Virus record (IMG/VR): IMGVR_UViG_3300036819_000087
Span: 43,283-107,282 of that record
Source of the DNA: a virus
Direction: 5' to 3' (one strand)
DNA length: 64,000 bases
Positions 1 to 42,586 of this stretch are shown one piece after another. Made by a program: the position numbers and the translations under genes. The stretch's first letter is position 1; every line of letters starts with the position of its first letter. The notes under the pieces were generated by a model, which had not been told where the DNA came from, did no database searches, and saw only the letters and a program-made list of their open reading frames with translations.

Positions 1-101
1 GACTCGGCGATCAGGGCGACATCACCGCGGCGGGCGTTGCCGGGGAACCGTTCGAGCTGGCCGAGGGGCACGTCGCGGGTGTCGAGGTATTTCGCCGGCA
101 C
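1..101 (-). CDS. ParB/Srx N-terminal-like protein, 5' part (runs off left edge)
   Basis: GTG at 101 after GGATAGGGG; VPAKYLDTRDVPLGQLERFPGNARRGDVALIAES resembles ParB-N proteins that precede actinophage terminases. Confidence 0.6.
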   Translation of the reverse strand, partial: MPAKYLDTRDVPLGQLERFPGNARRGDVALIAE

Positions 102-2589: not shown

Positions 2590-2889
2590 TCAGCGGCCGT
2601 TCGTGCAGCGCCGCGGGCCGCTCATGATCTTCTTGCGCATGTCGTACAGGTAGCCGATGTAGCAGGTGGCGCCGAAGTCGATCACCCAGCAGACCCCCGC
2701 GCATTTCGAGCACACGCCGCGGTAGGCGGGCTGCCCTTTCCGTTTGGCCCACTTCATCTTGTGGCCGAGGCGGGTCAGGTCCTGGTGCTCGCGGACCTTC
2801 AGGCGGGTGCTGTTCCCGGTCGCGCCGACATCTTTGACAGCCTGCCGCGCCCATGTCCGCTGGACGCTTTCGTCGTCGCCGCGGGTCAT
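2590..2889 (-). CDS. Small Cys/His protein (GHxMxW..CxxC paralogue 1)
   Basis: GHKMKW..YRGVCSKC; overlap-coupled to upstream gene. Confidence 0.7.
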   Translation of the reverse strand: MTRGDDESVQRTWARQAVKDVGATGNSTRLKVREHQDLTRLGHKMKWAKRKGQPAYRGVCSKCAGVCWVIDFGATCYIGYLYDMRKKIMSGPRRCTNGR

Positions 2890-3356
2890 GGTTTCTCGGA
2901 CCCGTCGAGCCAGCGGGTGTAGTCGCCGTCTTCCAGGGGGTTCTTGTCGATGTCGCGGTGGAGGAGATGCACGTTGTACCCGGTCCGGTCGAGGTCGCCG
3001 GCGGTCAGGATCGCGATCGACGGGGACCGGTGCCGGCCTGCTGTGCAGCCGACCGCGATGGTGACGGGGACACTGCTGCGGCGTTTCCGCCCGTACAGTT
3101 GGGCGGTCATGGTCCGGGCCATGCCGGCGAGGTCGGTGACCAGGTCGCGGACGCCGGGCGTGTACATGACCCGGTCCAGGATCTCCTGGTCGCGGGCCGT
3201 CAGGGCGCGGAGGGCGGGGTCGACGCCGGGGTCGTGGAACCGGTGCTGGACGTTGACGGTGATCTCCGCGTCCGCGGGGGGTGGGCCGTTCCGGTACCCG
3301 AACGAGACCAGGACGACGTGGGTGCTGTCGGGGACGAACCCGGTGGTGGTGATCAC
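2886..3356 (-). CDS. Stand-alone RapZ C-terminal domain protein
   Basis: VSFGY..DP.LRALT..IAVGCTAGRHRS. Confidence 0.85.
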   Translation of the reverse strand: MITTTGFVPDSTHVVLVSFGYRNGPPPADAEITVNVQHRFHDPGVDPALRALTARDQEILDRVMYTPGVRDLVTDLAGMARTMTAQLYGRKRRSSVPVTIAVGCTAGRHRSPSIAILTAGDLDRTGYNVHLLHRDIDKNPLEDGDYTRWLDGSEKP

Positions 3357-3757
3357 ACCGGCTCCTCGTCCTGCTGGCCTTCCAGCCAGCCGTTCTGGTC
3401 GGCGACCCACTCCGGGTAGGCGGGGCCGAGGAGGTCCCGGGCGACCTGGTCGGCGACGTAGTACAGGTGGAGGGGGCCGTGGTTCCCGCCGCCGGCTTCG
3501 GCCAGGTGGCCGAGGGCGCGGCCGACGCGGGCGATCAGCACGTCCGGGCCGGACTCAGCCCACCGGGTCTGCTGAACCAGGCGGACGTAGTCGAGGTACT
3601 GGGCGGTGAGGGCGAGCCGGTCGGCGACCAGCTCGGTGCGGGTCTCGGGCAGGGTGGCGCGGGCGGCCTGGTCCTGGATGTCGCGGGTGAGCCCTTCGAG
3701 GACCTCCCCGATCCGGGTCAGGTGCGGGAGCGCGGTCAGCGCGGGGGCGTCAGTCAT
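3353..3757 (-). CDS. Hypothetical protein
   Basis: RBS motif; coupled to next gene. Confidence 0.7.
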   Translation of the reverse strand: MTDAPALTALPHLTRIGEVLEGLTRDIQDQAARATLPETRTELVADRLALTAQYLDYVRLVQQTRWAESGPDVLIARVGRALGHLAEAGGGNHGPLHLYYVADQVARDLLGPAYPEWVADQNGWLEGQQDEEPV

Positions 3758-3781
3758 GGTGTTTTCCCTCGGTTGTTGTGG

Positions 3782-3961
3782 TCACCGGGTGGTTCCGGTG
3801 TGAGCGTTGCGGCGTGCCTGGCGGATGGCGCGGCGGCCGTTCCGGCCCAGGGCCTTGCGGTGGGCACGCTCGGCTTTCCGGTCCAGCGGGCGGCGGCGGA
3901 AACGTGACTAGGCAAGGCCGGCGGCTAGCAGGGTGACCGCGGCGACGGCAGGCAGTGTCAT
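3782..3961 (-). pseudogene. Small membrane-anchored basic protein interrupted by TAG at codon 18
   Basis: RBS motif + ATG; MTLPAVAAVTLLAAGLA*SRFRRRPLDRKAERAHRK.. continues in frame to TGA at 3784-3782. Confidence 0.55.
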
Positions 3962-3982
3962 GCTGGTGTCGCTCCTCGGTTG

Positions 3983-4651
3983 TTACGGGCGGGTAGGGGC
4001 CGGGTGGATGGTGACGACGGCAGGGGAACCGACCGGCTCAGGTGCTCCGACAGGCGGTACTGCGGGCGGGCTGGCTGAACTGGTCACCCAGGAACCGCCG
4101 TTCTCCGCGCCCAGGACGACGATCGCTTGCCAGGTGATGAGCCGCAGATCAGTCCCGGTGTGGATCTGGCCGCTGGCAGGGAACCACACGTAGTCGCCGG
4201 GGAGCGGGTTCATCCAGTCGTCGGACTGGTCACCGGCTCCGGTGAGCCATGGCTGGCAGGCGACCCTGCGTGTGATGCTGCCACACTCGGCCTGGACGGT
4301 CCGGCCGCTAGTAGTGAGGATTGCCAAGGTCAACGCCCCGCAGAGCGGTTTCTTGCCGCCGCGCTGGCGGCGGGGCATGGCGGTGGGGCAGTGCGCTTGG
4401 GTCGCGGCGGCGAACCCGAACTCGACGGGATCGGAGTCCAGGACCATTCCGGCGGTCATGCCAGGGTGGGGGCGGGTTGTGGGGTGGCTGTCCATGTAGT
4501 GGGTGGCCTCGGTGCGGCTCGACGTACCGGGCGGGCTCGACGTACCGGGCGGGGTGGCTGTCCATGCTTGGCGTGCGCAGGCGGTCAAGGTGCCGCCGAT
4601 GGTGAGCGCAGCGGTGGCGGTAGTCAGCGCGATGACGGTTCGGGAGGTCAT
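3983..4651 (-). CDS. Putative lipoprotein
   Basis: Signal peptide with LTAC lipobox. Confidence 0.7.
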   Translation of the reverse strand: MTSRTVIALTTATAALTIGGTLTACARQAWTATPPGTSSPPGTSSRTEATHYMDSHPTTRPHPGMTAGMVLDSDPVEFGFAAATQAHCPTAMPRRQRGGKKPLCGALTLAILTTSGRTVQAECGSITRRVACQPWLTGAGDQSDDWMNPLPGDYVWFPASGQIHTGTDLRLITWQAIVVLGAENGGSWVTSSASPPAVPPVGAPEPVGSPAVVTIHPAPTRP

Positions 4652-4689
4652 GCTGGTGGTGCTCCTCGGTTGTTTCGGGTGGTGGGGGG

Positions 4690-5925
4690 TCAGGAATTGA
4701 CGGCGCGGAGGCCGCGGGCCCGCTTCACCTCCTCGATGCGGGTCTTGCCCCAGTTGCGGGAGCGGCCGGGGTGCAAGGCGGAGAGGTCCCGGTCGGTGAG
4801 TGTCTTCCGGCCGGGCGCGAGCGACGCGATGTACTCGTCGCGGGCGGCGACCGCGTCGGGGTCCATGGACATGCGGCCACGGCCCGACAGGGCCACATCC
4901 GGGTGGACCTGGTCCGGGCCAGTGGTCCGTTCTGGCTCATCTGGCCCATCATTGGGCCGGGTGTCTGGCCCATCGGCCGGCCCACCCGTGGCCCACGTTT
5001 CTGGCCCATCGGCCGGCCCCGTCTCTGGCCCATTGGGGGCCTCGTCGGGGCCGTGGGCCGGGGCCATGGTCAGGGCCATGAACGGGGCCACCGGGAGGCT
5101 GGCGGACAGGGCCACGCCGGGGGCCACCCCGGCCGGGAGCGGCGCGGCGGCGGTCAGCAGTTCATCGACCCGGCCGAGGGCACCGGTGATGCGGACACCG
5201 GTGTCGAGCTGCCACAGCAGATCCCCCGGGACGTGGTCACGCCAGCCGGTGCCGAACCGGGCGCGGAGCCGCTCGACGGCGGCGCGGCGGTCGATTTCCA
5301 GGCTGACCGCGGTCGTGTAGGAGGTGACTCCCCACATGATCATGCGGCGTTTGATGTACCAGGTGCCGGGCCGGTCGACCAGCCACCTCTGCCAGGGGAT
5401 ACGTTCGGCGCGGCGCCGTGACCGGTCAAGGGCGCGGGCGGCGCGGCGGGCCTCGTTCTGGCGGCGGAGCATCGCATGCCGGGCCGCCTCAACGAAGATC
5501 ACCAGCAGGGCGGGCGCGAACATGCGGATGCCCATCCCCCGGTAGTCGGGCCAGCCGGCGGCGGCGTTCACGGCGACCACCCCGGCGGCGAACGTGAGGA
5601 CCGCCCACCGGAGCCACCACACCGTCCGTTCGGTGTAGACCAGGACCAGGTCCAGGCCCATCACCACGTACAGGCCACCCTGGATGCCGAGGGGGGCCAG
5701 CCACGCCAGCGCCACGTTCAGGTGGGCCGCGAGATGGGCCACCGTCTGGTAGTCGGCGGCGGTGGCGTAGGCCGCGATCGCCAGGCCACCGATGGCCAGC
5801 AGGACCCGCTGCCATGGGCCAAGAGCGGGCCGGCCTTCATGTTCTCCCATAGGGGCCATAGTGGCGTCTGGCCCAACAGGGGGCGGGGAAACACGCGGGG
5901 CGGTCATCAGGTTGGGTCCTTTCAC
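4690..5925 (-). CDS. DUF2637/Spd-like membrane protein with repeat linker and C-terminal HTH-like region
   Basis: About 4 N-terminal TM helices, 'RIPWQRWLVDRPGTW', DGPE/D repeats; lies near TraB. Confidence 0.7.
   Translation of the reverse strand: MKGPNLMTAPRVSPPPVGPDATMAPMGEHEGRPALGPWQRVLLAIGGLAIAAYATAADYQTVAHLAAHLNVALAWLAPLGIQGGLYVVMGLDLVLVYTERTVWWLRWAVLTFAAGVVAVNAAAGWPDYRGMGIRMFAPALLVIFVEAARHAMLRRQNEARRAARALDRSRRRAERIPWQRWLVDRPGTWYIKRRMIMWGVTSYTTAVSLEIDRRAAVERLRARFGTGWRDHVPGDLLWQLDTGVRITGALGRVDELLTAAAPLPAGVAPGVALSASLPVAPFMALTMAPAHGPDEAPNGPETGPADGPETWATGGPADGPDTRPNDGPDEPERTTGPDQVHPDVALSGRGRMSMDPDAVAARDEYIASLAPGRKTLTDRDLSALHPGRSRNWGKTRIEEVKRARGLRAVNS
4931..5033. repeat. TCTGGCCCAT direct repeats (candidate clt/TRS)
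   Basis: Exact copies at 4940, 4964, 5000, 5024; variants at 4931 and 4988. Confidence 0.6.
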
Positions 5926-6605
5926 TGGACCGGTGCGGGTTCATCGGCGAGGGCGAGGGAATCCTCGAACCACCAGCCGAACGTGGGCACGGCACCGCCG
6001 GCGGCCTGGAGCTCGTACACCTCGATGTAGCAGGCGGTGATGTCGTCGGGGAGCCGCAGCGCGCAGGAGTGGGCGTAGGCGACCCGGCGGATCGCGCCTT
6101 CAAGCAGGTTGATCGCCCGTTCGCATTCGGCGGCGACCCGGCGGGCTTTCTCCGCGGCCAGGGCGGCGTCTTGCATCCGCTTCTCCGCGTCGTCGTAGGC
6201 GGGTGATTCGGGGTAGGCGGCGGCCAGGTCGCGGCGGGCCCGTCTCCACGCATCGATCTGGCGGCGGAGTTCAGCGGCGGCTTCCGCCATGTCTTTGCGG
6301 GTTGCTGTTATCAGCTCTGCGCAGTGTTTCCCCTGCTGGTCGAGGAGGGTGGCGAGGTCGGCGGCGAAGTTGTCCAGTTCGGCGCGGGTCCAGTTGGGTT
6401 CTACGTCCCGGTCGTGGAGGAGGGCGGCGGCGTCGCCGGCGGTCAGGGCTAGGGCGGCGCCGGCGAGGGCGCCAAGGCCGAGGACGGCGACGTTGTTGCG
6501 GAGGGCGCGGGCGTACATGGTGGCGGTGGTGTTACCGGCGTCGCGGATGCCTTCGATGAACCGGAAAGCTGCCGCCTCGTGCGGGCCGATCGGGTCGAAC
6601 ATCAC
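5922..6605 (-). CDS. Hypothetical helical protein (transfer region)
   Basis: GGGAGGGG RBS; coupled to DUF2637 gene. Confidence 0.7.
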   Translation of the reverse strand: MMFDPIGPHEAAAFRFIEGIRDAGNTTATMYARALRNNVAVLGLGALAGAALALTAGDAAALLHDRDVEPNWTRAELDNFAADLATLLDQQGKHCAELITATRKDMAEAAAELRRQIDAWRRARRDLAAAYPESPAYDDAEKRMQDAALAAEKARRVAAECERAINLLEGAIRRVAYAHSCALRLPDDITACYIEVYELQAAGGAVPTFGWWFEDSLALADEPAPVQ

Positions 6606-6634
6606 CCCTCCCCTCCCCTACTGTCTGTGATCAC

Positions 6635-6666
6635 GATTGACCGGTCACTTGATTGACCGGTCACTT
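6635..6666. repeat. Tandem 16-bp repeat GATTGACCGGTCACTT x2 downstream of traB
   Basis: Seen directly; each unit contains the TGACCGGTCA palindrome. Confidence 0.8.
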
Positions 6667-6743
6667 CTGGACCCCCGTATATACAGGGCAGGTGTCCGGT
6701 CACGCGGCGTGCGGGCGGGCGCGGGCGCGGTCACGCGGTTTCG

Positions 6744-9083
6744 TCACTGGCTGTGATCCCCGGGCTTGGGGAGGCCGGGCGGGACCGGGGCCTTCCAGAC
6801 CCATTTCTGGGCCGCGCCGCCGGCCCCGTTGGTCCCGACCAGGTCCGCCAGCCTCAGTTTGTGCATGTAGGCGAGGGTGACCGCTTTGTTGATCTTGAGG
6901 ATGGCGGCGAGTTCCCGAGCCGATTTACCCCCGCTGACCAGGGCGTTCACGATGACCACGAAACGATCTTGGGGGATTTCGTGCAGGTCGGCGACCTGCT
7001 GCCACTGGACGGCGCGCGCCTGCCGCATCTGTTCCTCGGTGACCTCGGGCCGGATCGTGGCCGGGTCGGGGGTGCTGTCGAGGACGCGGCGGACCTCGTC
7101 GGCTTTGGTGCCGAGGCCCTGGACCATCTCGTCCAGGCCGGGGACTTCTTCTCGCATCATGCGCTCCAGTTCGTCGAACGAGGTGCCGGCGGCGGGCCGG
7201 TCGAGGGTGGCCACGGCCGCACCGTCCCATTCGGGGGAGGGGCTGGCGTCAGCATTTGCTGACGGGGTGGGGGTGGGCTGGGTGGTGGGGGTGAACCGGT
7301 CCCACTGGCCGCGTGCCCAGCGGGCGAACACGTCCTCGCCGAGGAGCTGGTCGAGTTCGTCGCCGAGGAAGTCCCGCAGTTCCGGTTCGAGCTGCGGCTG
7401 GTGGCGGGCGCGGGCGTTGACCAGTTCGTCGATGTCCTCGGTGTCGCGGAGCTTCCAGGTGCGGCCCATCGTGGTGGCGGCGCCCATCTCGGGGACGAAC
7501 CCCCACACGCCCTTGGCGGTGCCGCCGTAGGTGGTCATGTCGGGCATCCACGAGTTCTGGCCGAGGAGCAGCGCGGACTCGTTCGGGTTGGTGATGCGGC
7601 TCACGGCGAACGTGTCGACCAGGGGCCGGATGTTGGCCCCGGAGGGGCCGCCCATCCAGTCGGCGGTGGCCCGCTGCCCGGCGGTGACCCAGGCGATGCC
7701 CTCGGACCGGTCCTTGCTGTACGCCTGGCCGAGGAGTTTCGCGACGGCGGGGAACTTCGCGGCCGCGTCGATCTCGTCGATGATCACCAGGATGAGGGGG
7801 GCTTTGCGGGTGGGCCGGTGGTCACGGTTCCCGCGTCGGGTGTCGCGGTGCTGGGACCGCCACCAGCGGATCTTCTGGAGCAGGCGGAGGATGCGGACCG
7901 CGCGGGTCCACTGGTCCGGGCCGATCGCGGTCAGGTGGCACGCTGGCGCCCAGTCGAGCAGCTCGGACGCCTTGTCCAGGTTGATGCCGATGGTGAGGAC
8001 ATCCCGGCAGGCGGTGCCCCGCTCGTAGATGCAGTTCATGAGGGTTGATTTGCCCGCGCCGCGGGTGCCGAGGAGGTAGGCGACCCGGGCACCGTCCTCG
8101 GTCCAGACCGGGAGGGTGAGGACCCGGCCGGTTTCGGGAGCCTGGCCGACGGGGAACGGGTCGTGGCAGGTGGCCTCGTTCAGGCCGGGCAGCTCGATCT
8201 CATGGTCGGCGACCAGCGCCGGGTGCTTGATCGGCCGTTTCCACGGGTTGCGGTACTGAATGGTGACCTGGACGCGGCCGGCGCGGGAGTTCGCCGGGAC
8301 CGTAACCTGGACCTGGGCGGGGCGGAGCCCTTCCGCGCCGGCGATCGTTTCGGCGTAGTGGCCGGCGCGGGACCGGAAGTACGACGCTTTCTTGCCGGTG
8401 CCGTTCACGTCGAACAGCCACGCCTCCCCGACCCGGGTGTCCCAGTGGTTCAGCAGGAGCGCCCCGTGCATGTCCCAGCTTGCGGCGCGGTGCTGCCACG
8501 CGGTTTTCTCCGCCTGCCACTGGCGGGCGTACACGGCGGAGGGGAGGTGGTGGACCCACCACCAGGCGACCGCGGTGGTCAGCGCCCACAGCATCGTCAG
8601 GGACGGGACACCGAACGGGCCGCCGAGCACGCCACCCGGCTGGCCTGCGGTCCAGGCGACCCATGCGCCGGTGATCAGGCCGCCGACGGCCAGGCGGCGG
8701 GCCCCGGCCATGTGGTTGCGGCGTTCCCCGGTCCGCTTGTCCTTGCGGCCCGCCGAGCCGGCCAGGAGCGTCACCGACTCGAACACCAGGGTGGCGACCA
8801 CAATGTCATGGCCGGGGAGCCCGGTCACGTGCATGATCTCAGCGGCGGTCCACGCGACCGCGGCGGCCTTCCACACGCGGCGGGCCTCGCGGCCGGTGCT
8901 GGTGGGGGGGCGGCGGGTCAGCGTGTTGTCGTCGCTGCCACCCAGGTCCTCCTCGTCACCCCACTCATCCCCATCATCTGCCTCATCCCGGTCATTCGGC
9001 TGGTCTATCCGGTAGGGGGCGGTGGCATAGGGGTCACGGTCGTCGCTCCACTCGGCGGTGGCGTCCGGGTCGGGGTGGGTCAC
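6744..9083 (-). CDS. traB: TraB-like FtsK/SpoIIIE DNA translocase
   Basis: N-terminal TMs; Walker A GTRGAGKS; Walker B ILVIIDE; RSEGI..GQRAT; C-terminal wHTH (SARELAAILKINK). Confidence 0.85.
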   Translation of the reverse strand: MTHPDPDATAEWSDDRDPYATAPYRIDQPNDRDEADDGDEWGDEEDLGGSDDNTLTRRPPTSTGREARRVWKAAAVAWTAAEIMHVTGLPGHDIVVATLVFESVTLLAGSAGRKDKRTGERRNHMAGARRLAVGGLITGAWVAWTAGQPGGVLGGPFGVPSLTMLWALTTAVAWWWVHHLPSAVYARQWQAEKTAWQHRAASWDMHGALLLNHWDTRVGEAWLFDVNGTGKKASYFRSRAGHYAETIAGAEGLRPAQVQVTVPANSRAGRVQVTIQYRNPWKRPIKHPALVADHEIELPGLNEATCHDPFPVGQAPETGRVLTLPVWTEDGARVAYLLGTRGAGKSTLMNCIYERGTACRDVLTIGINLDKASELLDWAPACHLTAIGPDQWTRAVRILRLLQKIRWWRSQHRDTRRGNRDHRPTRKAPLILVIIDEIDAAAKFPAVAKLLGQAYSKDRSEGIAWVTAGQRATADWMGGPSGANIRPLVDTFAVSRITNPNESALLLGQNSWMPDMTTYGGTAKGVWGFVPEMGAATTMGRTWKLRDTEDIDELVNARARHQPQLEPELRDFLGDELDQLLGEDVFARWARGQWDRFTPTTQPTPTPSANADASPSPEWDGAAVATLDRPAAGTSFDELERMMREEVPGLDEMVQGLGTKADEVRRVLDSTPDPATIRPEVTEEQMRQARAVQWQQVADLHEIPQDRFVVIVNALVSGGKSARELAAILKINKAVTLAYMHKLRLADLVGTNGAGGAAQKWVWKAPVPPGLPKPGDHSQ

Positions 9084-9133
9084 GGTCGTGATCCTCTCGG
9101 GGCAGGCGGGCGGGCAGGAGAAGGGAAGGGGGG

Positions 9134-9931
9134 TTAGGCGGCGGCGCCGTCGCCGAACCACTGGCGGGCGTTGTTCGGCAGCGGGGTGCCGTCCGCGACC
9201 GCGTTGCGGGTCGCGGCGTACTCGGCGACCATCCGCTGGTTATGCGCGGCGACCAGCAGGGAGGCGTCCATCGCGCTGTCGGCGATCTCGATCAGGCCGG
9301 CGATGATGGCCGGGGACAGGTTCCACACGGCGGTCAGGTTGTCGGTGTGGGCCAGGATCGCCTGGGAGAAGTGGAGGAGCCCCGCCGACCAGCCCCGGAC
9401 CGTGGACAGTTCGCCGGCCTCGTTCTCCGGGACGAACCCGGCGATCGCGGTGGAGAGCTGGACCCACAGGGCGGGCACGTCCTGCTGGCCGATCACCGCC
9501 GGGTCCGGGGGGGCGGCGCGCAGGTCGTCGCGGAGGGACGGCACGTCCCGGACCGTGTCTGGGGTCGCGTCCGGGCCTGGGCCACCCGCAGCCGGGACGG
9601 GACGGACACGCTGGACCGGTGCGGTGACCGCCCCGTCCTGGTGGCCACGCCAGGCCGACTCACGGGCCTTCCTGATTCCCAGAGACACACCCCACCGGGC
9701 CCGCATGAGCAGCCAGCCGGACAGCCAGCACAGTTTGTCCCATGCCAGGGTGAGCATCAATCTGGGTGCTCTCCTGACGGCCAGTATCAGCACCTTCCAG
9801 TGGGACAGGTGCCCGATTCTGGAATCAGAACGGGATGCGTCCTCTTCCAGCACTTTGTACAGGTAGGCAACCGACCAGGAAAATCCGATCAGGAAAATCG
9901 GGAGGAACAGGACGAAAAAGAGGCTGAGCAT
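9134..9931 (-). CDS. Hypothetical membrane protein upstream of traB
   Basis: N-terminal TM; GAAAGGA RBS. Confidence 0.65.
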   Translation of the reverse strand: MLSLFFVLFLPIFLIGFSWSVAYLYKVLEEDASRSDSRIGHLSHWKVLILAVRRAPRLMLTLAWDKLCWLSGWLLMRARWGVSLGIRKARESAWRGHQDGAVTAPVQRVRPVPAAGGPGPDATPDTVRDVPSLRDDLRAAPPDPAVIGQQDVPALWVQLSTAIAGFVPENEAGELSTVRGWSAGLLHFSQAILAHTDNLTAVWNLSPAIIAGLIEIADSAMDASLLVAAHNQRMVAEYAATRNAVADGTPLPNNARQWFGDGAAA

Positions 9932-9946
9932 TTCCGGGTGTCCTTT

Positions 9947-10591
9947 CTAATACCAGCCGTGGATGTTTTCGTGGTCGAGCGCTTTGCAGGGGGTGCCGTA
10001 CACGTCGTGGATGTCGGCGAGGCCCCACCGGATTTGGGTCGCGGGGTCGGCCCGGCCCCCGAGGTCGGCGGGCCGGCCAGCGACCGGGTACTTGTAGGCG
10101 GGGCGGGCCTGCGCGATCCCGAACGCGAACACGTAGGAGCCGGGCCCGTCCCCGCCGGCGTGGGTGACGCGGGTGTCGGCGGTGTCCGACCAGCCCGACT
10201 CGCGGGTCCACAGCTCGTTGAGGCAGCCGGCCTGGGTGCCGGTCCAGCCGTCCAGGCAGCCGGCGAGCCTGTCACCGAGGGCCTGGTTGCTGGCCGGGGT
10301 GCCGCCGCCGCCGGGGGCCGAGCACGACGGGGCAGGATGATGGACGGCGTGGATGACAGGCCGGACCACTGGCCGGACCACGGCCTTGGCCGCACCCGGA
10401 TCCGCGCCAGCACCAGCGGCGGCGAACGCAGCGACAGCCAGGCCAGCGACCACCAGCGGGTGGGGGCCTCGTCGCTGGCCGAGACGGAGCGGCTTCTGGA
10501 ACAGGGACGGGCGCGGCCCATGGAACCGGCGGGACCGGCGGGCCTGCCGCCGCGTCGGCGGCCGGTGGAAGTCGTACCCGTCCAGAGGCAT
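9947..10591 (-). CDS. Lytic transglycosylase (SLT/aggregation-promoting-factor type)
   Basis: CLNELWTRESGW..AFGIAQA..TQIRWGL..YGTPC..GWY. Confidence 0.9.
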   Translation of the reverse strand: MPLDGYDFHRPPTRRQARRSRRFHGPRPSLFQKPLRLGQRRGPHPLVVAGLAVAAFAAAGAGADPGAAKAVVRPVVRPVIHAVHHPAPSCSAPGGGGTPASNQALGDRLAGCLDGWTGTQAGCLNELWTRESGWSDTADTRVTHAGGDGPGSYVFAFGIAQARPAYKYPVAGRPADLGGRADPATQIRWGLADIHDVYGTPCKALDHENIHGWY

Positions 10592-10601
10592 GAGCTGGCC
10601 C

Positions 10602-10826
10602 CTACCGGCTCTCGCCGGAGCAGCGTTGGCGGCCGAACCAGCCCAGTTTGTAGGTCTCCGAACGGCCACCGGGATGCACGGTCACCGAGCCGAGGCAGCG
10701 GCCGCACTGGCCGTTGTATGTCTGGATGTTGCGTCTAATCCTCCAGGTCATCTTGTGGCCTTTGCCGCGGAGACGGCGCGTCCATTCCTTTTTGGCCTCG
10801 TTGCGCTGTTCGATCTCGGTAGCCAT
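10602..10826 (-). CDS. Small Cys/His protein (paralogue 2)
   Basis: GHKMTW..YNGQCGRC. Confidence 0.7.
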   Translation of the reverse strand: MATEIEQRNEAKKEWTRRLRGKGHKMTWRIRRNIQTYNGQCGRCLGSVTVHPGGRSETYKLGWFGRQRCSGESR

Positions 10827-10828
10827 GG

Positions 10829-11062
10829 TCAGCGGCCTCCCCGGATTCGGCGGCATCCAGGCCACTTCAGGTCGGTGGTGTCGACGCTGCCGCCGAGGTA
10901 GACGGTGATCTCGCCGGGGCAGTTCTTGCAGCGGCCGTGCCAGCGCCTGCTGCGGCCCCCGCTGTACTTCCACTGCATGACGTGGCCGTGTTTGCGGAGC
11001 TTGTCAGCCCAGTCGCGTTTAGCGGCGGTGCGCGCCTGCGCCGGGGTGATCTGGTTGCGCAT
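10829..11062 (-). CDS. Small Cys/His protein (paralogue 3)
   Basis: GHVMQW..WHGRCKNC. Confidence 0.7.
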   Translation of the reverse strand: MRNQITPAQARTAAKRDWADKLRKHGHVMQWKYSGGRSRRWHGRCKNCPGEITVYLGGSVDTTDLKWPGCRRIRGGR

Positions 11063-11064
11063 GG

Positions 11065-11652
11065 TCAGTACCTCAGTCCGGGGATGCGGCCGTAGCCGAC
11101 GATGGTGGTTTCGGTGGGGGACCAGGCGCGGACCTGGACGTACGCGCCGGTGTGGGGTGCCTCGACCACCCGGCCGCCACCGACATAGGTGACGACGTGG
11201 CCGGGGGACGGGTCGGGGTCGCCGGGCCATTGCTCGAAGATCAGGTCACCCGGTTCGAGCTGGCTGTAGGAGATGCGGGTGGTCCAGGCGTACTGGGCTT
11301 CGCTGGTCCGCGCCCCGGTGTCGATACCGATCTGGTGGAGCGCCCAGAAGTTCAGCCCGGAACAGTCGAACTCGCTGGGTCCGATCGCCCCGTACACGTA
11401 CGGGTCGCCGGTCTTGGATTCCTCCAGGTGGAGGAACTCGGTAGCGGTCGGCCCGCTGCCCCCGCCGGCGGCGGCCGCGGCGTGCGCGGGAGCCGCCGTG
11501 GCGGCGGGGTGCTTGGCCTGGTGGACAGCGGCGTGCGCGCCGGTCGAGGCCAGCGCGCACACCACCACCCCGGCCATCACCCCGGCCGCCCAGCCGGGGA
11601 CACCGCTGGCGCGGCGCCCGTACCGGCGGCGGAGAGCATCGGGAGAGGTCAT
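11065..11652 (-). CDS. NlpC/P60 peptidoglycan endopeptidase, secreted
   Basis: PYVYGAIGP..FDCSGL..PGDLIF..GHVVTYVGGG..VEAPHTG. Confidence 0.95.
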   Translation of the reverse strand: MTSPDALRRRYGRRASGVPGWAAGVMAGVVVCALASTGAHAAVHQAKHPAATAAPAHAAAAAGGGSGPTATEFLHLEESKTGDPYVYGAIGPSEFDCSGLNFWALHQIGIDTGARTSEAQYAWTTRISYSQLEPGDLIFEQWPGDPDPSPGHVVTYVGGGRVVEAPHTGAYVQVRAWSPTETTIVGYGRIPGLRY

Positions 11653-11655
11653 CGG

Positions 11656-11970
11656 TTACCGGCTCACAGACCAGCCGCCAGCGGTCCGCTGGCTGCCCTT
11701 GTCCTTGCCCCGGCCGAACGGGGCCACGAGGATCCCCGTGGCCGCCGCGACCGCGAAGAAGATCACGAATAGGACGACCCACGCGCCGATCATGTTGCTG
11801 GTCACGGAGGTGTGGGTGACGGCGGCGTGGTGGGCGATCGCCGTCTTGTGCTTGTCGTTGATGTAGCCGACAGCGACCGACGCGGCGGCCACCGACGCGA
11901 CGATCGCGCCGAACAGCCAGCGGCCGAACGTCAGCGGCTTGCTCTCGCGATTGCGGTTGTTGCTGCTCAA
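11656..11970 (-). CDS. Small membrane protein
   Basis: Two hydrophobic segments; AAAGGAGA RBS. Confidence 0.7.
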   Translation of the reverse strand: MSSNNRNRESKPLTFGRWLFGAIVASVAAASVAVGYINDKHKTAIAHHAAVTHTSVTSNMIGAWVVLFVIFFAVAAATGILVAPFGRGKDKGSQRTAGGWSVSR

Positions 11971-12023
11971 CGGGGTGTCTCCTTTGGTGTGGCGTTGGCC
12001 CGGCCGGTTGGCCGGGCCACGAT

Positions 12024-12389
12024 CTAGACCGCTTCGGCTTCTATGCCTTCGCGCTTGAGACGGCGGCGTTCCCGTTCGGACATGCCGCCCCAGATCCCGA
12101 ACCGCTCATCGTTGGCGAGGGCGAATTCGAGGCAGTCGGCGCGGACCTCACAGGACCGGCACACCTTCTTGGCCTCCCTCGTCGACCCGCCCTTCTCGGG
12201 GTAGAAGGCTTCGGGGTCGGTTTGGGCGCACAGGGCCCGGTCCTGCCAGCCGAGTTCGTTGCCCTCGTCGGTCACTTCGCCGACGAAGCTCTCGTCGAGG
12301 GGCTCAACCGTGACCAGGGGGCCGGCGATGGGGCCGGCCGCGCCGGGGCTGGCCGCGAGGGTGGAGACGCGGACACGGGCGGCGCTCAT
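12024..12389 (-). CDS. whiB: WhiB-family Fe-S transcription factor (WhiB/WhiB2-like)
   Basis: WQDRALCAQTDPEAFYPEKGGSTREAKKVCRSCEVRADCL..GIWGG. Confidence 0.95.
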   Translation of the reverse strand: MSAARVRVSTLAASPGAAGPIAGPLVTVEPLDESFVGEVTDEGNELGWQDRALCAQTDPEAFYPEKGGSTREAKKVCRSCEVRADCLEFALANDERFGIWGGMSERERRRLKREGIEAEAV

Positions 12390-12931
12390 GACTTGGCCGC
12401 CTTCCGCAGGTCGGCGAAGTTCGTGCACCGGACCTCGACCAGGGCGGTGAACTCGGACACGCTTCGCGCGTGGAGCGGACGGACCGGGCCGGTGTGCTCG
12501 ACCACCAGGTCGGCCTTGTAGCCGTAGAACTGGCGGGCGCGGTACACAGCGTCCTGCTCGATATCGTCGAGGTCGCGGCCCTCGGCCTGGTCGGCGATGA
12601 ACAGGTCCGGGCCGGGGCGGGGGGCGGGTTCCCGGTTGGCGCGCATGACGGCCAGCAGGTCGGGACGAGGCTGATCCGGGGCGGGCGGGGCGGGACAGCC
12701 GAACAGGTCAAGGAACGAGGGCATGAGGGTTCTCCAGGGAAGGAACAGGACGGCCGCGCCGAGGAACACGACCAGGGCGGCGGCGGCGGCCAGCCAGCAC
12801 AGACCGGACTGGCAGGTCCAGCCGCCGGTAACAGCCAGGACGGCGACCACGGCGGCCGCGTCTCCGCACACGGCGGCACGCCGTCGTGTGCGGGCGCGGG
12901 GGGTGATCTCAGTCACGGGGGGCCTCCTCAC
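12386..12931 (-). CDS. Hypothetical membrane protein
   Basis: Coupled to whiB; TM segments. Confidence 0.6.
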   Translation of the reverse strand: MRRPPVTEITPRARTRRRAAVCGDAAAVVAVLAVTGGWTCQSGLCWLAAAAALVVFLGAAVLFLPWRTLMPSFLDLFGCPAPPAPDQPRPDLLAVMRANREPAPRPGPDLFIADQAEGRDLDDIEQDAVYRARQFYGYKADLVVEHTGPVRPLHARSVSEFTALVEVRCTNFADLRKAAKS

Positions 12932-13274
12932 GCCGGCCGCCGAAGTCGGCGGTGGCCGGGTCGGCCTCGTCGAGGAACTCGGCCAGTTCGGTCAGGAGCC
13001 GGACGGTGCCCTGCTCAGCAAGCTGGTCGCGGAACACGTCGAGGGCATCGGTGTAGTTGCCGCAGTGGACCGTCACGCGGGCGGTGACCGGGCCGGGCGC
13101 GCGGGGTGACAGCGACGCGGACAGGGGGCCGATGTAGGCGACCCGGAGGCGGGCGGCTGGCCCGTACACGCGCTGCGCATGGTCGAGGGCGTAGACGATC
13201 AGGCCGGGGATTCCGGAGCCGAAAGCGTCGAGGCTGAACCAGTCGGGGCTGTCGGGGCGGGGTGTCGTGGTCAC
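12909..13274 (-). CDS. Hypothetical protein
   Basis: GGAGG RBS; coupled. Confidence 0.65.
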   Translation of the reverse strand: MTTTPRPDSPDWFSLDAFGSGIPGLIVYALDHAQRVYGPAARLRVAYIGPLSASLSPRAPGPVTARVTVHCGNYTDALDVFRDQLAEQGTVRLLTELAEFLDEADPATADFGGRREEAPRD

Positions 13275-13600
13275 GATGCCTCCTGCGCGAGAGCGCGGGC
13301 GGTGCGGGCGTCGGCCAGCAGGACGGCGGCGAGGCCGTGGTCTGGCTTGGGGCCAGAGATGGCGTCCTCGGCCTGTGCGGTGAACCGCGCGGCGAGCGCC
13401 TCGTACACCTCGGGGCCGGCATCGACGAGGATGCCGCCGGTGAACATGCCGGCGGCGGTGGCACCGGGGCCGATACGGAGGGGGCGCTCGTAGCGGCCGG
13501 CGAGGATCACGGCGCGGAGGCTGGCCCTGATCTCATCGGGGGTCCCGGCGGTGGCCGTCTCCTCGTCCACCCAGACGATGACCGGGGCGGGGGCGGTCAT
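13271..13600 (-). CDS. Hypothetical protein
   Basis: GAGGAG RBS before ATG 13600. Confidence 0.65.
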   Translation of the reverse strand: MTAPAPVIVWVDEETATAGTPDEIRASLRAVILAGRYERPLRIGPGATAAGMFTGGILVDAGPEVYEALAARFTAQAEDAISGPKPDHGLAAVLLADARTARALAQEAS

Positions 13601-13824
13601 CCCGCGCTCCTCAGCGACTGGGGGGGCCGACCGCAGCGTGCGCAGAAGATCCGGCGACGGTGGCGGATCAGGCTGTCCTCCGGGTGGCAGGGCGATGGTG
13701 CAAGTTCCCGGGAACTGGCGGAGGGGTTGCCGCCAGTCATGCCCCAGGCGGCTTGTGCACGGGCGAGGGCGGCTGCCCCCGCGCGCCGATTGGGCTTGAC
13801 GAACCTGGTTGCTACAGTGGCCAT
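13597..13824 (-). CDS. Small Cys-containing hypothetical protein
   Basis: AGGAAGGA RBS; CH..CARC. Confidence 0.55.
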   Translation of the reverse strand: MATVATRFVKPNRRAGAAALARAQAAWGMTGGNPSASSRELAPSPCHPEDSLIRHRRRIFCARCGRPPQSLRSAG

Positions 13825-13917
13825 GTCGTTTCCTTCCTGGGCGGATGGGGCGATGTGGTGAGCAGGGCGACGGCCGCGGAGTGAGGGCTCCGTGGCCGTT
13901 CGCGTTGTAGGAGCAGT

Positions 13918-14160
13918 TCATGCGGGCACCGCCGACAGGCCGGGGCGTGCGGGGCGGAGCCGGGTGCGGGCGATGTAGGCGTCATAGGACGCCACCGTCA
14001 CGCGGAGGGTGCGGCCGAACTGATTCGCGACCAGTTCACCGGAGTGGATCAGGCCACGGACCCAGTCCTCGTCCCGGTCCCACGCGGCCGCGATCGCCTG
14101 AACCGAATAGAACGGGTCAGGTGCGGGGGCCGCTTGCGTCTCGGCGGGGGATTCACTCAC
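13918..14160 (-). CDS. Excisionase-like HTH protein
   Basis: FYSVQAIAAAW..WVRGLIHSGEL..GRTLRV. Confidence 0.8.
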   Translation of the reverse strand: MSESPAETQAAPAPDPFYSVQAIAAAWDRDEDWVRGLIHSGELVANQFGRTLRVTVASYDAYIARTRLRPARPGLSAVPA

Positions 14161-14250
14161 CCGTGGGACCACCTCTCTGGACCTGGCAGGCCCGGAAGGC
14201 ACCTCGGTTCACCGCAAGTGCCCTCACGGACCCGCATAAGCCGGTTTGGT

Positions 14251-14320
14251 AATGACAGTACAGACCGAACGGACCGAACTGTCAATGGGTTCGGGAAAGT
14301 CCGGGTTACGCTTTCCGGTG
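14251..14320. promoter_or_regulatory. Divergent promoter/operator between xis-like gene and GntR
   Basis: Minus strand TTGACA-N19-TACTGT; TGACAGT..ACTGTCA inverted repeat enclosing GACCGAAC x2. Confidence 0.65.
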
Positions 14321-14351
14321 GCAACCGAGGCGACCAGGGAGGACCCGGGCA

Positions 14352-15101
14352 GTGACCGAGTGGGAGAAAATCGCCAGCGACCTGCGGCGGAAGATCGAGG
14401 CGGGGGAGTTCACCGACGGGCGTCTGCCGACGGAACGGGACCTCGCCGAGGAGTACGAGGTGGCGCGGCCCACCGTTCAGCGGGCGCTGGTCAGCCTCAC
14501 CAACGACGGGCTCCTCGAACCGGGGCAGGGCCGGCGGGGCCGGCGGATCCGCCGGAACCGGCCGCTGGTATTCCATGTGCTGCGGTCAGAGTCACCGGCG
14601 GCGATCGCCGAGCACGCGGCGGCCGGGGTTGACTCGTGGACGGCCGCCGCGACCGAACAGGACCGGGCCGGCGGGCAGCAGATCTCGGTGGCGATCGAGG
14701 AGGCCAGCGCCAGCATCGCCGCCCACCTCGGCATCGGCCAGGGCGGCGAGGTCACTGTCCGGCGCCGGGTCCGCACCCTCGATGGTGAACCGCACAACCT
14801 CGCCACCACCTACTACCCGCGGTCGCTGACCGGCGGGTCGGCGATCGAGGGGCCGGGGGATATCCCGCAGGGCACCATCGCGCTCCTGGGGGAGATGGGC
14901 TGGCCCCAGACCAGATCCCGCGACGAGATCGGCACCCGGATGCCGGCCCCGGCCGAACGGGAACAGCTTGAGGTGCCGCCCGGTGTCCCGGTGCTGGTCC
15001 ACGTCCGTGTCGGGTACAGCGGGGACACCCCGGTCAAGGTGACAGTGACGATCTGGCCGGGGGACCGGGCCCGCCTGGTGTATGAGGACGGGGACGTGTG
15101 A
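14352..15101 (+). CDS. GntR/HutC (UTRA) repressor, KorSA-like
   Basis: IASDLRRKIEAGEF..RLPTERDLAEEYEVARPTV + UTRA domain. Confidence 0.93.
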   Translation: MTEWEKIASDLRRKIEAGEFTDGRLPTERDLAEEYEVARPTVQRALVSLTNDGLLEPGQGRRGRRIRRNRPLVFHVLRSESPAAIAEHAAAGVDSWTAAATEQDRAGGQQISVAIEEASASIAAHLGIGQGGEVTVRRRVRTLDGEPHNLATTYYPRSLTGGSAIEGPGDIPQGTIALLGEMGWPQTRSRDEIGTRMPAPAEREQLEVPPGVPVLVHVRVGYSGDTPVKVTVTIWPGDRARLVYEDGDV

Positions 15102-15664
15102 TGCCGTTCATCCACAAAGCCGAACCGGGTCACCTGGCCGAGGTCCACGACGTGCTCCACTCAGCGGCTGAGGACCTTCACCGGCGGGGCATCGATCAGT
15201 GGCCGGACGGGTCACCGAACTTCGAGCCGGCCGCGCTGGCCACCCAGATCCGGCGGGGCGAGTTCTGGATGGTCCGGGACCGGGCACTGCTGCCGGTCGC
15301 GGTGATCGCCGTGTCCTACCGCGGCGACCCCGATTTCTGGACCCCCGCCGAGCTGGCCGCCCACGCCGTGTACCTGTCGAAAGCGGCGATCCTGCCGCGT
15401 CTGCGCGGGTTGGGGCTCGGCGCGTCCCTGTTCCGGTGGGCGGTCGACCTGGGATGGCGGGAAGGCACCGACGTGGTCCGCCTCGACGCCTGGTCAGCGA
15501 ACAAGCAGCTCCACGGCTACTACCAGGCGCGGGGGTGGCGGTTCATCCGCAACGACCCTCCGGAAGGACGCCGGTCCGGGGCCCTGTTCGATCGGCCCGC
15601 GGTCCCGGACCCGGACGCGCGGCGCATGTTCCGGCGGGTGCCGCCGCCGGCGATGGCCCTCTAG
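15098..15664 (+). CDS. GNAT acetyltransferase
   Basis: GIDQW..RGLGLGASL..VRLDAW..N..LHGYY..GW. Confidence 0.9.
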   Translation: MMPFIHKAEPGHLAEVHDVLHSAAEDLHRRGIDQWPDGSPNFEPAALATQIRRGEFWMVRDRALLPVAVIAVSYRGDPDFWTPAELAAHAVYLSKAAILPRLRGLGLGASLFRWAVDLGWREGTDVVRLDAWSANKQLHGYYQARGWRFIRNDPPEGRRSGALFDRPAVPDPDARRMFRRVPPPAMAL

Positions 15665-24925: not shown

Positions 24926-25353
24926 CCGTCCTCACCGGGCATATCCCGCTCGGGGCCGCGTTCACCGGCGACGACGGGCACGCCTACTCGATCGAGCGGA
25001 TCCTCGACGACATCGGCGGCGCGGGCCTGGTCATGATCCGGCACACCACCGGGATGGTGTGCCGGATCGACCAGCGGGTCGACCACGCGGGCCACGGCGG
25101 GTGCGGGGCCTGGTACGTGGCCCCCGACAACACGGTCACCTGCGCGGGACTCCTCGCCCACCCCAAGGGCCCGTTCGAATGCAGCACCCGCCTGTTCCCG
25201 CTGTCGGCGGTGACCGGCCAGCCCGGCCACCAGCCGCCGGCGGGGACGGTGGTCCCGTTGTGGCCACCCGCCCCCCCGGCGTTCCCGCCGTTCACCGCCG
25301 ACCCCGGCGACGGCCAGGCCGACGCGGACGACGACGCCCCGGCGGCGGCGTGA
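24922..25353 (+). CDS. Hypothetical protein
   Basis: Coupled to bet. Confidence 0.65.
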   Translation: MTVLTGHIPLGAAFTGDDGHAYSIERILDDIGGAGLVMIRHTTGMVCRIDQRVDHAGHGGCGAWYVAPDNTVTCAGLLAHPKGPFECSTRLFPLSAVTGQPGHQPPAGTVVPLWPPAPPAFPPFTADPGDGQADADDDAPAAA

Positions 25354-25356
25354 CGC

Positions 25357-25872
25357 ATGGCCCTCTCTGTCGTTCCGGTCAGCCCCCGCGAGGCGGTCGC
25401 GTTCATCGCACTGTGGCACCGCCACAACAAGCCGCCCCGCGGGTGCAAGTTCTCGCTCGGGGTCGCCGACGACCTCGGGGTGCTGCGCGGTGTCGCCATG
25501 GTCGGCCGCCCGGTCGCCCGCTTGTACGACGACGGCCTGACCCTGGAGGTCAACCGCACCAGCACCGACGGGGCGCGGAACGCCAACTCGATGATGTACG
25601 GGGCGGCGTGGCGGGCAGCTCGGGCGCTCGGTTACTGCCGGCTGGTCACCTACACCCACGCCGACTACTCCGGCCCCGTGTGCCCGGCCCCGTGCGCCCA
25701 CTGGTCGTGCCTAGCCGTCCGGGTGGGTGAATCCGGGGCCAGTCTCCGGGCGGCCGGGTGGCGGATCGTCGCCCAGCGCACCCCCCATCACGGCTGGGAC
25801 CGGCCAGCACGGCCCCGTGTCGACAGCGGCGGCGAGCTGATCCCGCGCACCTTGTGGGAGGCCACGGCGTGA
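25357..25872 (+). CDS. XF1762-family (Mom-like GNAT fold) protein
   Basis: HRHNKPP..GVAMVGRPVAR..LEVNR..RNANSMMYGAA..TYT..ESGASLRAAGW. Confidence 0.85.
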   Translation: MALSVVPVSPREAVAFIALWHRHNKPPRGCKFSLGVADDLGVLRGVAMVGRPVARLYDDGLTLEVNRTSTDGARNANSMMYGAAWRAARALGYCRLVTYTHADYSGPVCPAPCAHWSCLAVRVGESGASLRAAGWRIVAQRTPHHGWDRPARPRVDSGGELIPRTLWEATA

Positions 25873-26096
25873 CGCTCACCGTGCAAGAGCAGGCCGCGCG
25901 GCGGCGGGCACGACTCACCGAGCTGGTCGCCGCCGGCCTGTACGCCGAAACGATCCGGGACATCCCCCGGACCTGCCTGTGCCCGTGGGACGGGCCCCGC
26001 GTCAACGACCCCGCCCACTACATCCGGATCGGCTGGACCCCAGCGTGCCCGATCGCCATGCATCACACCGGCCCGCCCAAGGCGGCGGCGGCCTGA
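25869..26096 (+). CDS. Small Cys/His hypothetical protein
   Basis: Coupled; CLC..CPIAMH. Confidence 0.6.
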   Translation: MTLTVQEQAARRRARLTELVAAGLYAETIRDIPRTCLCPWDGPRVNDPAHYIRIGWTPACPIAMHHTGPPKAAAA

Positions 26097-26443
26097 TGGA
26101 TGAGAAGACACGCCGCGAAATCTTCGCCTGTGCCCGCCCCGGATGCGGCCTGCCCGAGGACGCACACAAAAACCCGGTCGGCACCGACGCGGAGCTTCTC
26201 GGCGCGCTCACCGCGCTCGGCGGGGCCTGCGACCACTACGTCCTGTCTGACCGTGCTCTCCAGTACCAGGCCCATCTGAACATCGCCGGCCGCGACCCCG
26301 CCCCGCGGTACGGCGGCCCCCGTCCCAAACGGGGCCGTCTGTGCGGGCGGTGCGGCCAGCGGGGCCACAAGCCCGAGAACTGCGTGATCTCCCCCGGCAC
26401 ACCCGGCCGGCCACCCGAGTCGATAAGGAACCGGAACCAATGA
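26096..26443 (+). CDS. Protein with CCHC zinc knuckle
   Basis: LCGRCGQRGHKPENC. Confidence 0.65.
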   Translation: MDEKTRREIFACARPGCGLPEDAHKNPVGTDAELLGALTALGGACDHYVLSDRALQYQAHLNIAGRDPAPRYGGPRPKRGRLCGRCGQRGHKPENCVISPGTPGRPPESIRNRNQ

Positions 26444-31045: not shown

Positions 31046-31066
31046 GACCGAGAGGAGGTGACCCCG

Positions 31067-41869: not shown

Positions 41870-42048
41870 CGCAGCACCCCGGCCAGGGCGAGGACCAGAG
41901 CGATCAAGCAGGCGAACCCGGCGGCGGTGATCGCGAGCGTGTGGGGGCTGTCGTCGAGCCATTCGAGGAGCCCGCGGGCGAGGTCCCTGATCATTGGCGG
42001 CCGTCCTCTCGGTCGTCGTACCACGGGCCGATCGCCTCGCGGAGGTCA

Positions 42049-42582: not shown

Positions 42583-42586
42583 TTGT

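Follow-up and report, generated by a model that had tools for sequence, protein, structure and literature searches.

The DNA stretch analysed here (the window, 64,000 nucleotides) corresponds to nt 43283-107282 of the 107,282-bp IMG/VR virus record IMGVR_UViG_3300036819_000087. At positions 2886-15664 it carries a block of genes in which a GntR/UTRA regulator stands opposite a leftward operon, and this operon leads into terminase, portal and tape-measure genes. Judged by hydropathy, many of the block proteins are membrane or secreted proteins. We propose that the block is probably a DNA transfer module of the type known from Streptomyces plasmids, built into the genome of a tailed phage. Since raw lists of open reading frames (ORFs) are noisy at 71% GC, genes were called by the GC content of third codon positions (GC3). 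From the regulatory genes to the end of the operon, the block contains the following features:

15098-15664 (+): GNAT acetyltransferase, translationally coupled to the GntR gene (Pfam Acetyltransf_1, E 4e-6)
14352-15101 (+): GntR/UTRA regulator of HutC type, a Kor-like candidate repressor (Pfam UTRA, E 2e-23; GntR, E 5e-13)
14203-14351 (unstranded): divergent control region and candidate operator, with an inverted repeat TGACAGT...ACTGTCA enclosing two direct copies of GACCGAAC
13918-14202 (-): small helix-turn-helix (HTH) protein, first gene of the leftward operon (HTH_17, E 0.003, under the Pfam cut-off)
12386-13921 (-): three ORFs from the GC3 gene calls (13271-13921, 12909-13274 and 12386-12931), no family matches
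12024-12428 (-): WhiB-family Fe-S transcription factor (Pfam Whib, E 1.5e-26)
11656-11970 (-): small membrane protein with two transmembrane (TM) helices (hydropathy; weak membrane-family matches only)
11065-11652 (-): predicted secreted NlpC/P60 peptidoglycan endopeptidase (Pfam, E 5e-16; N-terminal hydrophobic segment)
9947-10669 (-): membrane-anchored transglycosylase-like protein with one TM helix (PHROG transglycosylase, E 4e-15; NCBIfam AggPromo_Cterm at the C-terminus, E 5e-15)
9134-9931 (-): conserved membrane protein g58, always immediately upstream of the ATPase gene (tblastn matches at the same position in seven related loci)
6744-9161 (-): 805-aa DNA translocase of predicted FtsK fold, candidate Tra protein, with an N-terminal membrane region and a C-terminal winged helix (profile and fold)
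6606-6743 (138 bp, unstranded): intergenic repeat region, candidate clt or operator, in which four direct copies of GTGACCG(G) surround a TATA-like core
5922-6605 (-): conserved protein g56 with one TM helix, always immediately downstream of the ATPase gene (tblastn matches in the related loci L007-L010 and L020)
4690-5925 (-): DUF2637 polytopic membrane protein with 4-5 TM helices, candidate Spd-like spread protein (Pfam, E 1e-8; PHROG 29003, E 5e-22)
3353-4651 (-): two ORFs (3983-4651 and 3353-3757), each preceded by the motif AACAACCGAGGAG; the ORF at 3983-4651 has a signal-like N-terminus
2886-3410 (-): RapZ C-terminal-domain protein (Pfam PapZ_C, E 2e-24)

An earlier note on this DNA had described DUF2637, RapZ C-terminal, SLT and NlpC/P60 genes together with a divergent GntR gene, and all of these are recovered by the Pfam, PHROG and NCBIfam matches listed above. 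It had also described a Xis-like HTH gene; this gene is present, but its identity depends on the sub-threshold HTH_17 match. The HTH of the GntR regulator is 38% identical to that of KorA from plasmid pIJ101. Several genes of the block are kept in related loci from other contigs (see below), for instance WhiB at the same relative position in nine loci, NlpC/P60 in eight, and the GntR and GNAT pair in locus L009, where the identity is 55-56%. Neither family searches nor the ESM Atlas yielded an annotation for g58 or g56. Two TM helices are predicted from hydropathy for the ORF at 12386-12931, and the GC3 score of the ORF at 3983-4651 is low, leaving its coding status uncertain. The DUF2637 protein has a linker made of a DGPE/DGPD repeat. 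A homologue of this protein adjoins the ATPase gene in a Streptomyces atratus plasmid, and homologues of the RapZ C-terminal protein adjoin it in the same plasmid and in G009.

The 805-aa ATPase carries the Walker A motif GTRGAGKST and the Walker B motif LILVIIDEID. Only about 30 homologues, nearly all of them metagenomic, were found among 5.8 billion clustered proteins (a close relative, P0003, is 88% identical), and searches of the ATPase against Pfam, NCBIfam and PHROGs returned only P-loop noise. We built a profile from the approximately 30 homologues (A1), which matches the FtsK motor near Walker B and the QR motif (E 1.8e-4) and, at positions 610-690, many winged helices of ArsR, MarR and ZitR proteins (E 5e-3 to 1e-2). 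In the AlphaFold2 model of the ATPase (mean predicted local distance difference test, pLDDT, 72), long helices span residues 62-202, and three helices with a beta hairpin lie at 705-763. One N-terminal segment exceeds the Kyte-Doolittle threshold of 1.5, so that membrane association is predicted. A Foldseek search with the model ranked the FtsK motor best (E 9e-14, TM-score normalised to target length up to 0.68), followed by TcpA, EccC/EssC and HerA. Judged from model and profile, the ATPase is FtsK-like in its predicted fold and architecture and very divergent in sequence. It is also predicted to have the three-part architecture of TraB, with N-terminal hydrophobic helices, an FtsK motor fold and a C-terminal winged helix. 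The label of the earlier note, a TraB-like FtsK ATPase with a winged HTH domain, thus agrees with profile, fold and motifs.

To place the ATPase among known translocases, we compared A1 with individual proteins using hhalign. The highest scores were obtained with the ATPase of the S. atratus plasmid (Prob 98.7, E 1.7e-16, 271 columns), with a plasmid protein annotated by PGAP as FtsK/SpoIIIE (Prob 97.5, E 6e-12) and with pZL12.71c from the Streptomyces plasmid-phage pZL12 (Prob 96.9, E 1.9e-10); these three alignments span 210-271 columns. The similarity to Tra of pIJ101 is marginal (Prob 84, E 8e-6, 269 columns), and the alignment with the Escherichia coli FtsK motor covers just 75 columns (Prob 75, E 2.4e-5). 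A relaxed tblastn search with the ATPase core gave weak matches only, mostly to FtsK/SpoIIIE-type proteins of Streptomyces, Rhodococcus and Frankia plasmids. A clustering with non-transfer FtsK or HerA had been named beforehand as an observation that would count against a transfer function; A1 is instead nearer to the Tra-type ATPases of plasmids and plasmid-phages than to E. coli FtsK.

The second element that suggests a transfer function is the repeat array at the 3' end of the ATPase gene. Two of the four GTGACCG(G) copies at 6606-6743 lie within the perfect 16-nt tandem AAGTGACCGGTCAATC, two form the palindromes TGACCGGTCA, and the copies in this 138-bp region can also be written GTGACCGG. 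We defined an array as three or more copies of a 7-mer inside 120 bp, located in the 200 bp past the ATPase stop codon. By this definition, an array is present immediately 3' of the ATPase stop codon in 9 of the 11 related loci. Such arrays are found in 8% of all windows of these loci and in 3.4% of windows centred on intergenic gaps, which gives binomial P values of 6e-9 and 3e-12, respectively, for the recurrence. The motif itself is lineage-specific, with AATGCGTGCA, TTTGAGCG, AACGTGCGG, CCGGCCAA, ATCGGCTCAT and AACGTCCC as examples. In every locus, the repeats surround a TATA-like core and are followed by a conserved GTCACTC and the ribosome-binding site (RBS) of the next gene, and inverted copies of the motif often lie beyond the far side of the core. 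Furthermore, the likeness of the motifs tracks the likeness of the recognition helices of the ATPases: the helix WVART occurs with CGTGC and W(T/Q)AR with TTGAGCG, a correspondence that shared ancestry could also explain. Published clt loci, the cis-acting sites of transfer, are built of short repeats, direct and inverted, that lie at the tra gene or beside it (PMC3583192, PMC4170104). We thus regard the GTGACCG(G) array as a candidate clt to which the ATPase may bind. A different repeat, TCTGGCCCAT, occurs four times within the DUF2637 gene (4940-5035) and is the strongest short-repeat cluster in a k-mer scan of the whole record; it was dropped as a clt candidate since it codes for the DGPE/DGPD peptide repeat of the linker.

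The block is native to the phage genome, as is evident from its composition, its flanks, its translation signals and its recurrence. The GC content lies between 0.67 and 0.75 along the whole stretch, without a step at the block. No attachment (att)-like repeats were found to flank it, and a Pfam scan of the block revealed neither an integrase nor a Rep protein. The extended RBS motif AACAACCGAGGAG occurs 11 times compared to 0.87 expected occurrences, and it precedes genes of the block, early genes and genes near the recombinase, as the earlier note had claimed for block and early genes; it may mark a set of co-regulated or highly translated genes. In the motif count, its sites are distributed as follows:

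2209, 3765, 3972, 4662 (-): AACAACCGAGGAG sites
16499, 18477, 33863, 35109, 36813 (+): AACAACCGAGGAG sites
42587, 42983 (-): AACAACCGAGGAG sites

A megablast search of the block against plasmids and phages gave a single match, 48 nt of the WhiB gene. At the protein level, relatives of the ATPase were found on 10 IMG/VR contigs and on 6 contigs of actinomycete metagenome-assembled genomes (MAGs), one of which (locus L018) is 837 kb long. Three of the 10 IMG/VR contigs have direct terminal repeats (125, 124 and 71 kb). The order WhiB, NlpC/P60, transglycosylase, g58, ATPase and g56, with a divergent GntR gene, is kept in the related loci. The TerL of the window phage had no match in the 10 related viral records when used as a probe, and family models and a protein panel were therefore used for these records. 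With these, genes for TerL, portal or tape-measure protein (TMP) were detected on at least seven of them, so that other genomes combining the ATPase with phage genes, for which the earlier note had suggested a search, do exist.

The genome that harbours the block is a 107-kb tailed phage of a high-GC actinomycete. In the part of the record that lies upstream of the window, the strand of the block also encodes a fusion of ParB-N and methylase, TerL, a 1169-aa portal, a fusion of MuF and ADP-ribosyltransferase and a ParB-like protein. The window itself also encodes RecT, DNA methylases, EndoVII, a tyrosine recombinase, a GH25 lysin, sugar-modification genes and large tail-fibre-like ORFs, and the final ORF of the record resembles both the annotated TMP of a Streptomyces plasmid and pZL12.51c. 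The phage context claimed before (with TerL, portal, MuF, the tape-measure-like gene and the GH25 lysin) is thus real. A major capsid protein was not identified by the family and protein searches made of the record, and no tRNA genes were found in the stretch. The record has a CheckV completeness of 96% and is labelled 'linear' in IMG/VR. Its final 126 nt (window 63875-64000) are identical to nt 10-135 of the record, and merging this overlap yields a circle of 107,147 bp. A tape-measure-like ORF of 940 codons runs uninterrupted through the join of the record ends, phage genes lie at either end, and host flanks are absent. From the end overlap, the record is probably circular, and the label is probably due to 9 odd bases at the record start. 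The suggestion that the element is a phage-plasmid therefore stands as far as the phage gene set and the probable circle are concerned, but plasmid maintenance is not established, a point to which we return below. The absence of an integrase from the block itself was likewise as claimed: the sole tyrosine recombinase of the record, which could serve integration or dimer resolution, is encoded outside the block:

43010-44625 (-): tyrosine recombinase (43648-44625) and endonuclease VII (43010-43561), from Pfam matches

The best comparison for this element is pZL12. Conjugation has been published for two Streptomyces plasmid-phages, pZL12 and pFP4 (PMC3583192, PMC4170104), and the transfer of pZL12 depends on a major tra gene together with two genes next to it (PMC3583192). 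The genome of pZL12 (Streptomyces phage ZL12, GQ919031.1) is circular and 90,435 bp long. Its plasmid-phage nature was reportedly described by Zhong et al. in 2010, and we take pFP4 and pSLE1 to be relatives of it. In pZL12, the GntR regulator pZL12.80 faces an operon of a NUDIX protein, the membrane protein 73c, 72c and the FtsK/SpoIIIE-like 71c; past 71c follow TerL, structural genes, lysis genes and a pair of integrase and EndoVII. The window phage, itself probably a circle, shares with it the large genome size (about 90-107 kb), the divergent GntR and the operon of membrane proteins with an FtsK-like ATPase of ~725-805 aa, then TerL, portal, TMP and lysis genes, and the adjoining tyrosine recombinase and EndoVII genes (36c and 35c in pZL12). 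Homology is found for TerL (38%), the full-length integrase (31%), EndoVII (43%) and the GntR regulator (28% identity to pZL12.80), and TMP, WhiB and the NUDIX domain are detectably homologous as well. On the other hand, homology is detectable for just 7-9 of ~120 genes. The module in the window has NlpC/P60, transglycosylase, WhiB and RapZ-C in addition, whereas pZL12 has ParA/ParB and an identified rep locus, neither of which was found in the window phage, and it has no repeat array directly 3' of 71c. Moreover, the cycle of pZL12 has been shown experimentally, whereas the window element is known from sequence alone. Going by these sequence comparisons, the window phage is a distant and very divergent relative of pZL12.

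When comparing the block to other known systems, we find parallels in TraB/Tra of Streptomyces plasmids and of actinomycete integrative and conjugative elements (AICEs), such as TraB of pSVH1, Tra of pIJ101, TraA of pWTY27 and TraSA of pSAM2. In these systems, too, one membrane-associated FtsK-like ATPase bears a winged helix at its C-terminus, the GntR (Kor) gene is divergent, membrane genes ('spd') follow downstream, and short repeat arrays lie at the 3' end of tra (PMC3583192, PMC4170104). The clt of TraB-type systems is made up of short repeats (TRS) to which the winged helix binds, mostly at the 3' end of tra, and the translocase forms a hexameric pore through which double-stranded DNA passes between hyphae. 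In pIJ101, for example, the GntR gene (+) lies opposite tra-spdA-spdB-kilB (-). Unlike in these systems, the similarity of the window ATPase is marginal and lacks a Pfam FtsK_SpoIIIE match, the replicon is a 107-kb tailed phage instead of a small plasmid or an AICE, and the block has dedicated wall hydrolases. AICEs differ further in that the block has neither its own integrase and Rep nor flanking att repeats. FtsK/SpoIIIE translocases and TcpA, the coupling protein of pCW3, have the motor fold, both Walker motifs and the QR motif in common with the window ATPase; however, genes for chromosomal division or for a type IV secretion system do not form its genomic context.

Among named relatives, the one nearest to the window ATPase family is encoded on plasmid unnamed3 of S. 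atratus (NZ_CP108279.1, circular, 99 kb). There, a comparable module consists of DUF2637, a further gene, a 656-aa protein, the 797-aa FtsK-like ATPase, a further gene, a RapZ-like protein, a further gene, TerL and ParB, and both its DUF2637 and its RapZ-C protein have homologues in the window. The gene order differs from that in the window, the ATPase retains a recognisable Pfam FtsK_gamma domain, and the replicon is annotated as a plasmid and typed 'non-mobilizable'. As a side observation, the FtsK-gamma ATPase module adjoins TerL in this ~99-kb replicon, whose examined part (L025) contains a terminase, and another ~99-kb Streptomyces 'plasmid' (NZ_CP041606.1, L023/L024) carries portal, capsid, tape-measure and terminase genes. 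PLSDB types both replicons as non-mobilizable, and a related terminase is common to 35 Streptomyces plasmids.

Taken together, we consider the block to be a built-in transfer and spread module of Streptomyces type (TraB/FtsK-like, double-stranded DNA) in a pZL12-like temperate actinophage, with a probability of about 60%. In the mechanism that we propose, the GntR/UTRA regulator would repress the leftward operon that diverges from it, in the way that tra of pIJ101 is controlled by KorA. The operon would supply the wall-cutting NlpC/P60 and transglycosylase proteins, small membrane proteins and the membrane-anchored ATPase of predicted FtsK fold. The C-terminal winged helix of the ATPase would bind the GTGACCG(G) array 3' of its own gene, with the array acting as clt, and the motor, presumably a hexamer, would transport the circular phage genome in double-stranded form into the hypha next to it. 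There, g56, the DUF2637 protein and other membrane proteins may act in a Spd-like manner and spread the DNA through the recipient mycelium. The same genome would also leave the cell in tailed virions.

Several observations weigh against this interpretation. The ATPase has no match to Pfam FtsK_SpoIIIE (PF01580), a model that found nothing in the whole record even at E<=10, and tblastn at 1e-5 gave zero matches to it among 50,697 records of phages and 72,556 of plasmids; the homology to proven Tra proteins thus rests on profile comparison and fold only. For a plasmid-phage Tra protein the failure of PF01580 is not decisive, because pZL12.71c has no Pfam match either. pZL12.71c, the only FtsK-like gene of pZL12, is itself presumed to be the 'major tra gene' of that element. 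In the first 180 bp past the gene, no array was found for pZL12.71c, for the S. atratus ATPase or in locus L026. Where arrays are present, they enclose a TATA-like core a short way upstream of the next gene and could thus be an operator instead of a clt. The DUF2637 protein shows no similarity to SpdB of pIJ101. Finally, ParA was not found in the record, where only a ParB-like protein was seen, and there was no replication initiator among the proteins scanned, although many early genes lack an annotation and the absence is not proven; extrachromosomal maintenance, the 'plasmid' half of a phage-plasmid, is therefore not established.

Most of the remaining probability belongs to an intramycelial or segregation role of the module and to an operator reading of the repeats. 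The module might work inside a single mycelium, where the pump and its sites would carry or partition the phage genome through cross-walls and into the compartments of spores, in the manner of SffA/FtsK or Spd, and no mating would be involved. This is suggested by the chromosome-segregation motor FtsK being the best structural match, by the FtsK_gamma domain of the S. atratus homologue, by the retention of the module just upstream of the late genes in many phage genomes, and by the absence of a detected ParA, which would make another segregation device useful. We nonetheless judge it unlikely, since secreted wall hydrolases and a GntR-tra layout like that of pIJ101 and pZL12 are hallmarks of intercellular transfer and conjugal transfer of pZL12 has been reported (PMC3583192, PMC4170104). 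In addition, Streptomyces plasmids use one Tra protein for both spread and mating, so that an intramycelial role overlaps with a transfer module. The repeat array, in turn, might be the operator or promoter of the downstream g56 and DUF2637 genes, bound by a repressor or autoregulator, while the ATPase would act elsewhere or non-specifically. The position of the repeats around the TATA-like core and before GTCACTC and the RBS of the next gene would fit this function, and the palindromes formed by two of the copies in the window are typical for dimeric repressors. However, the clt of pWTY27, pJV1 and pSVH1 are matched by 3-4 direct, lineage-specific copies at the 3' end of a tra-type gene (PMC3583192), and motif likeness follows the recognition helix of the ATPase, for which shared ancestry is the other possible cause. 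We thus find a pure operator function rather improbable; the roles of clt and operator are not mutually exclusive.

Two further explanations concern the block as a whole. It could serve defence or superinfection exclusion, with the membrane ATPase and its partners stopping incoming DNA. A block rich in membrane proteins, located between regulatory and late genes of a prophage-type genome, would be compatible with such a system, but gene content, gene order and cis repeats fit transfer modules, and wall hydrolases would be unexpected in it; we regard exclusion as very unlikely. The idea that the block is foreign, either a recently inserted fragment of an AICE or plasmid or the product of a chimeric metagenome assembly, draws on the linear label and on gene types that are typical of AICEs (GntR, FtsK-like ATPase, DUF2637 and, elsewhere in the record, NUDIX). 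It is largely refuted and hardly credible. The uniform GC content (0.70-0.72), the missing flanking repeats and the occurrence of AACAACCGAGGAG inside and outside the block dispose of an att-flanked AICE. A chimera is contradicted by the recurrence of the module in the 10 IMG/VR and 6 MAG contigs and by the overlapping ends with an ORF open through the join, a check of circularity that had been recommended earlier. Moreover, the module lies beside TerL, portal or TMP on numerous independent contigs and likewise in both pZL12 and the S. atratus plasmid.

Other parts of the record are described here in their own right. The head module encodes the MuF-like head protein fused to an ADP-ribosyltransferase domain (L005:9315-11108, record 25315-27108), the 1169-aa portal with its long C-terminal extension (L005:13423-16932, record 29423-32932) and a 472-aa NUDIX protein. 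Between the transfer block and the terminase lies a gene for a 558-aa N6/N4 DNA methylase (L006:9707-11383, record 41707-43383, reaching into window 1-101), the N-terminus of which resembles ParB of a Streptomyces phage-plasmid. A sugar-modification cluster at 52525-55780, between tail-fibre-like and lysis genes, consists of a C-methyltransferase, an NAD-dependent epimerase/dehydratase and a GT1 glycosyltransferase. The Streptomyces plasmid pS1D4-14.2 likewise has sugar-modification genes (epimerase/dehydratase, glycosyltransferases and methyltransferase). A 73-aa ORF was called at 44896-45117.

Elements of this kind are already known from pZL12 and pFP4, so that the one in the window is a further, very divergent member and does not found a kind of its own. 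To our knowledge, these two are the only ones that have been studied so far. What is modestly new is that the window record and its relatives suggest a module that is widespread in uncultivated actinomycete phages, and that the 3' end of the ATPase gene is marked by a lineage-specific array. With the GTGACCG(G) array and the counterparts in other lineages, there is a concrete cis site on which the transfer hypothesis can be tested directly. More broadly, we tentatively suggest, at somewhat less than even odds, that a large unrecognised group of temperate actinomycete phages (70-125 kb, some with terminal repeats) has self-transfer as a core module, formed by a divergent clade of FtsK-like translocases each with its own lineage-specific clt array, and that dual transmission is general in this group.

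Phages that also move by mating blur the boundary between viruses and conjugative elements. Their spread need not kill the donor, hosts that lack the phage receptor come within reach, and chromosomal DNA may be mobilised as well, as it is by TraB. In practical terms, the module may improve the mobility typing of actinomycete replicons, and it is a candidate tool for DNA delivery in Streptomyces. If self-transfer were indeed common to the group, the combination of virions and hyphal conjugation of double-stranded DNA would be a general strategy instead of a curiosity of pZL12, and the pairs of repeats and winged helices would constitute a natural set of orthogonal DNA-recognition specificities.

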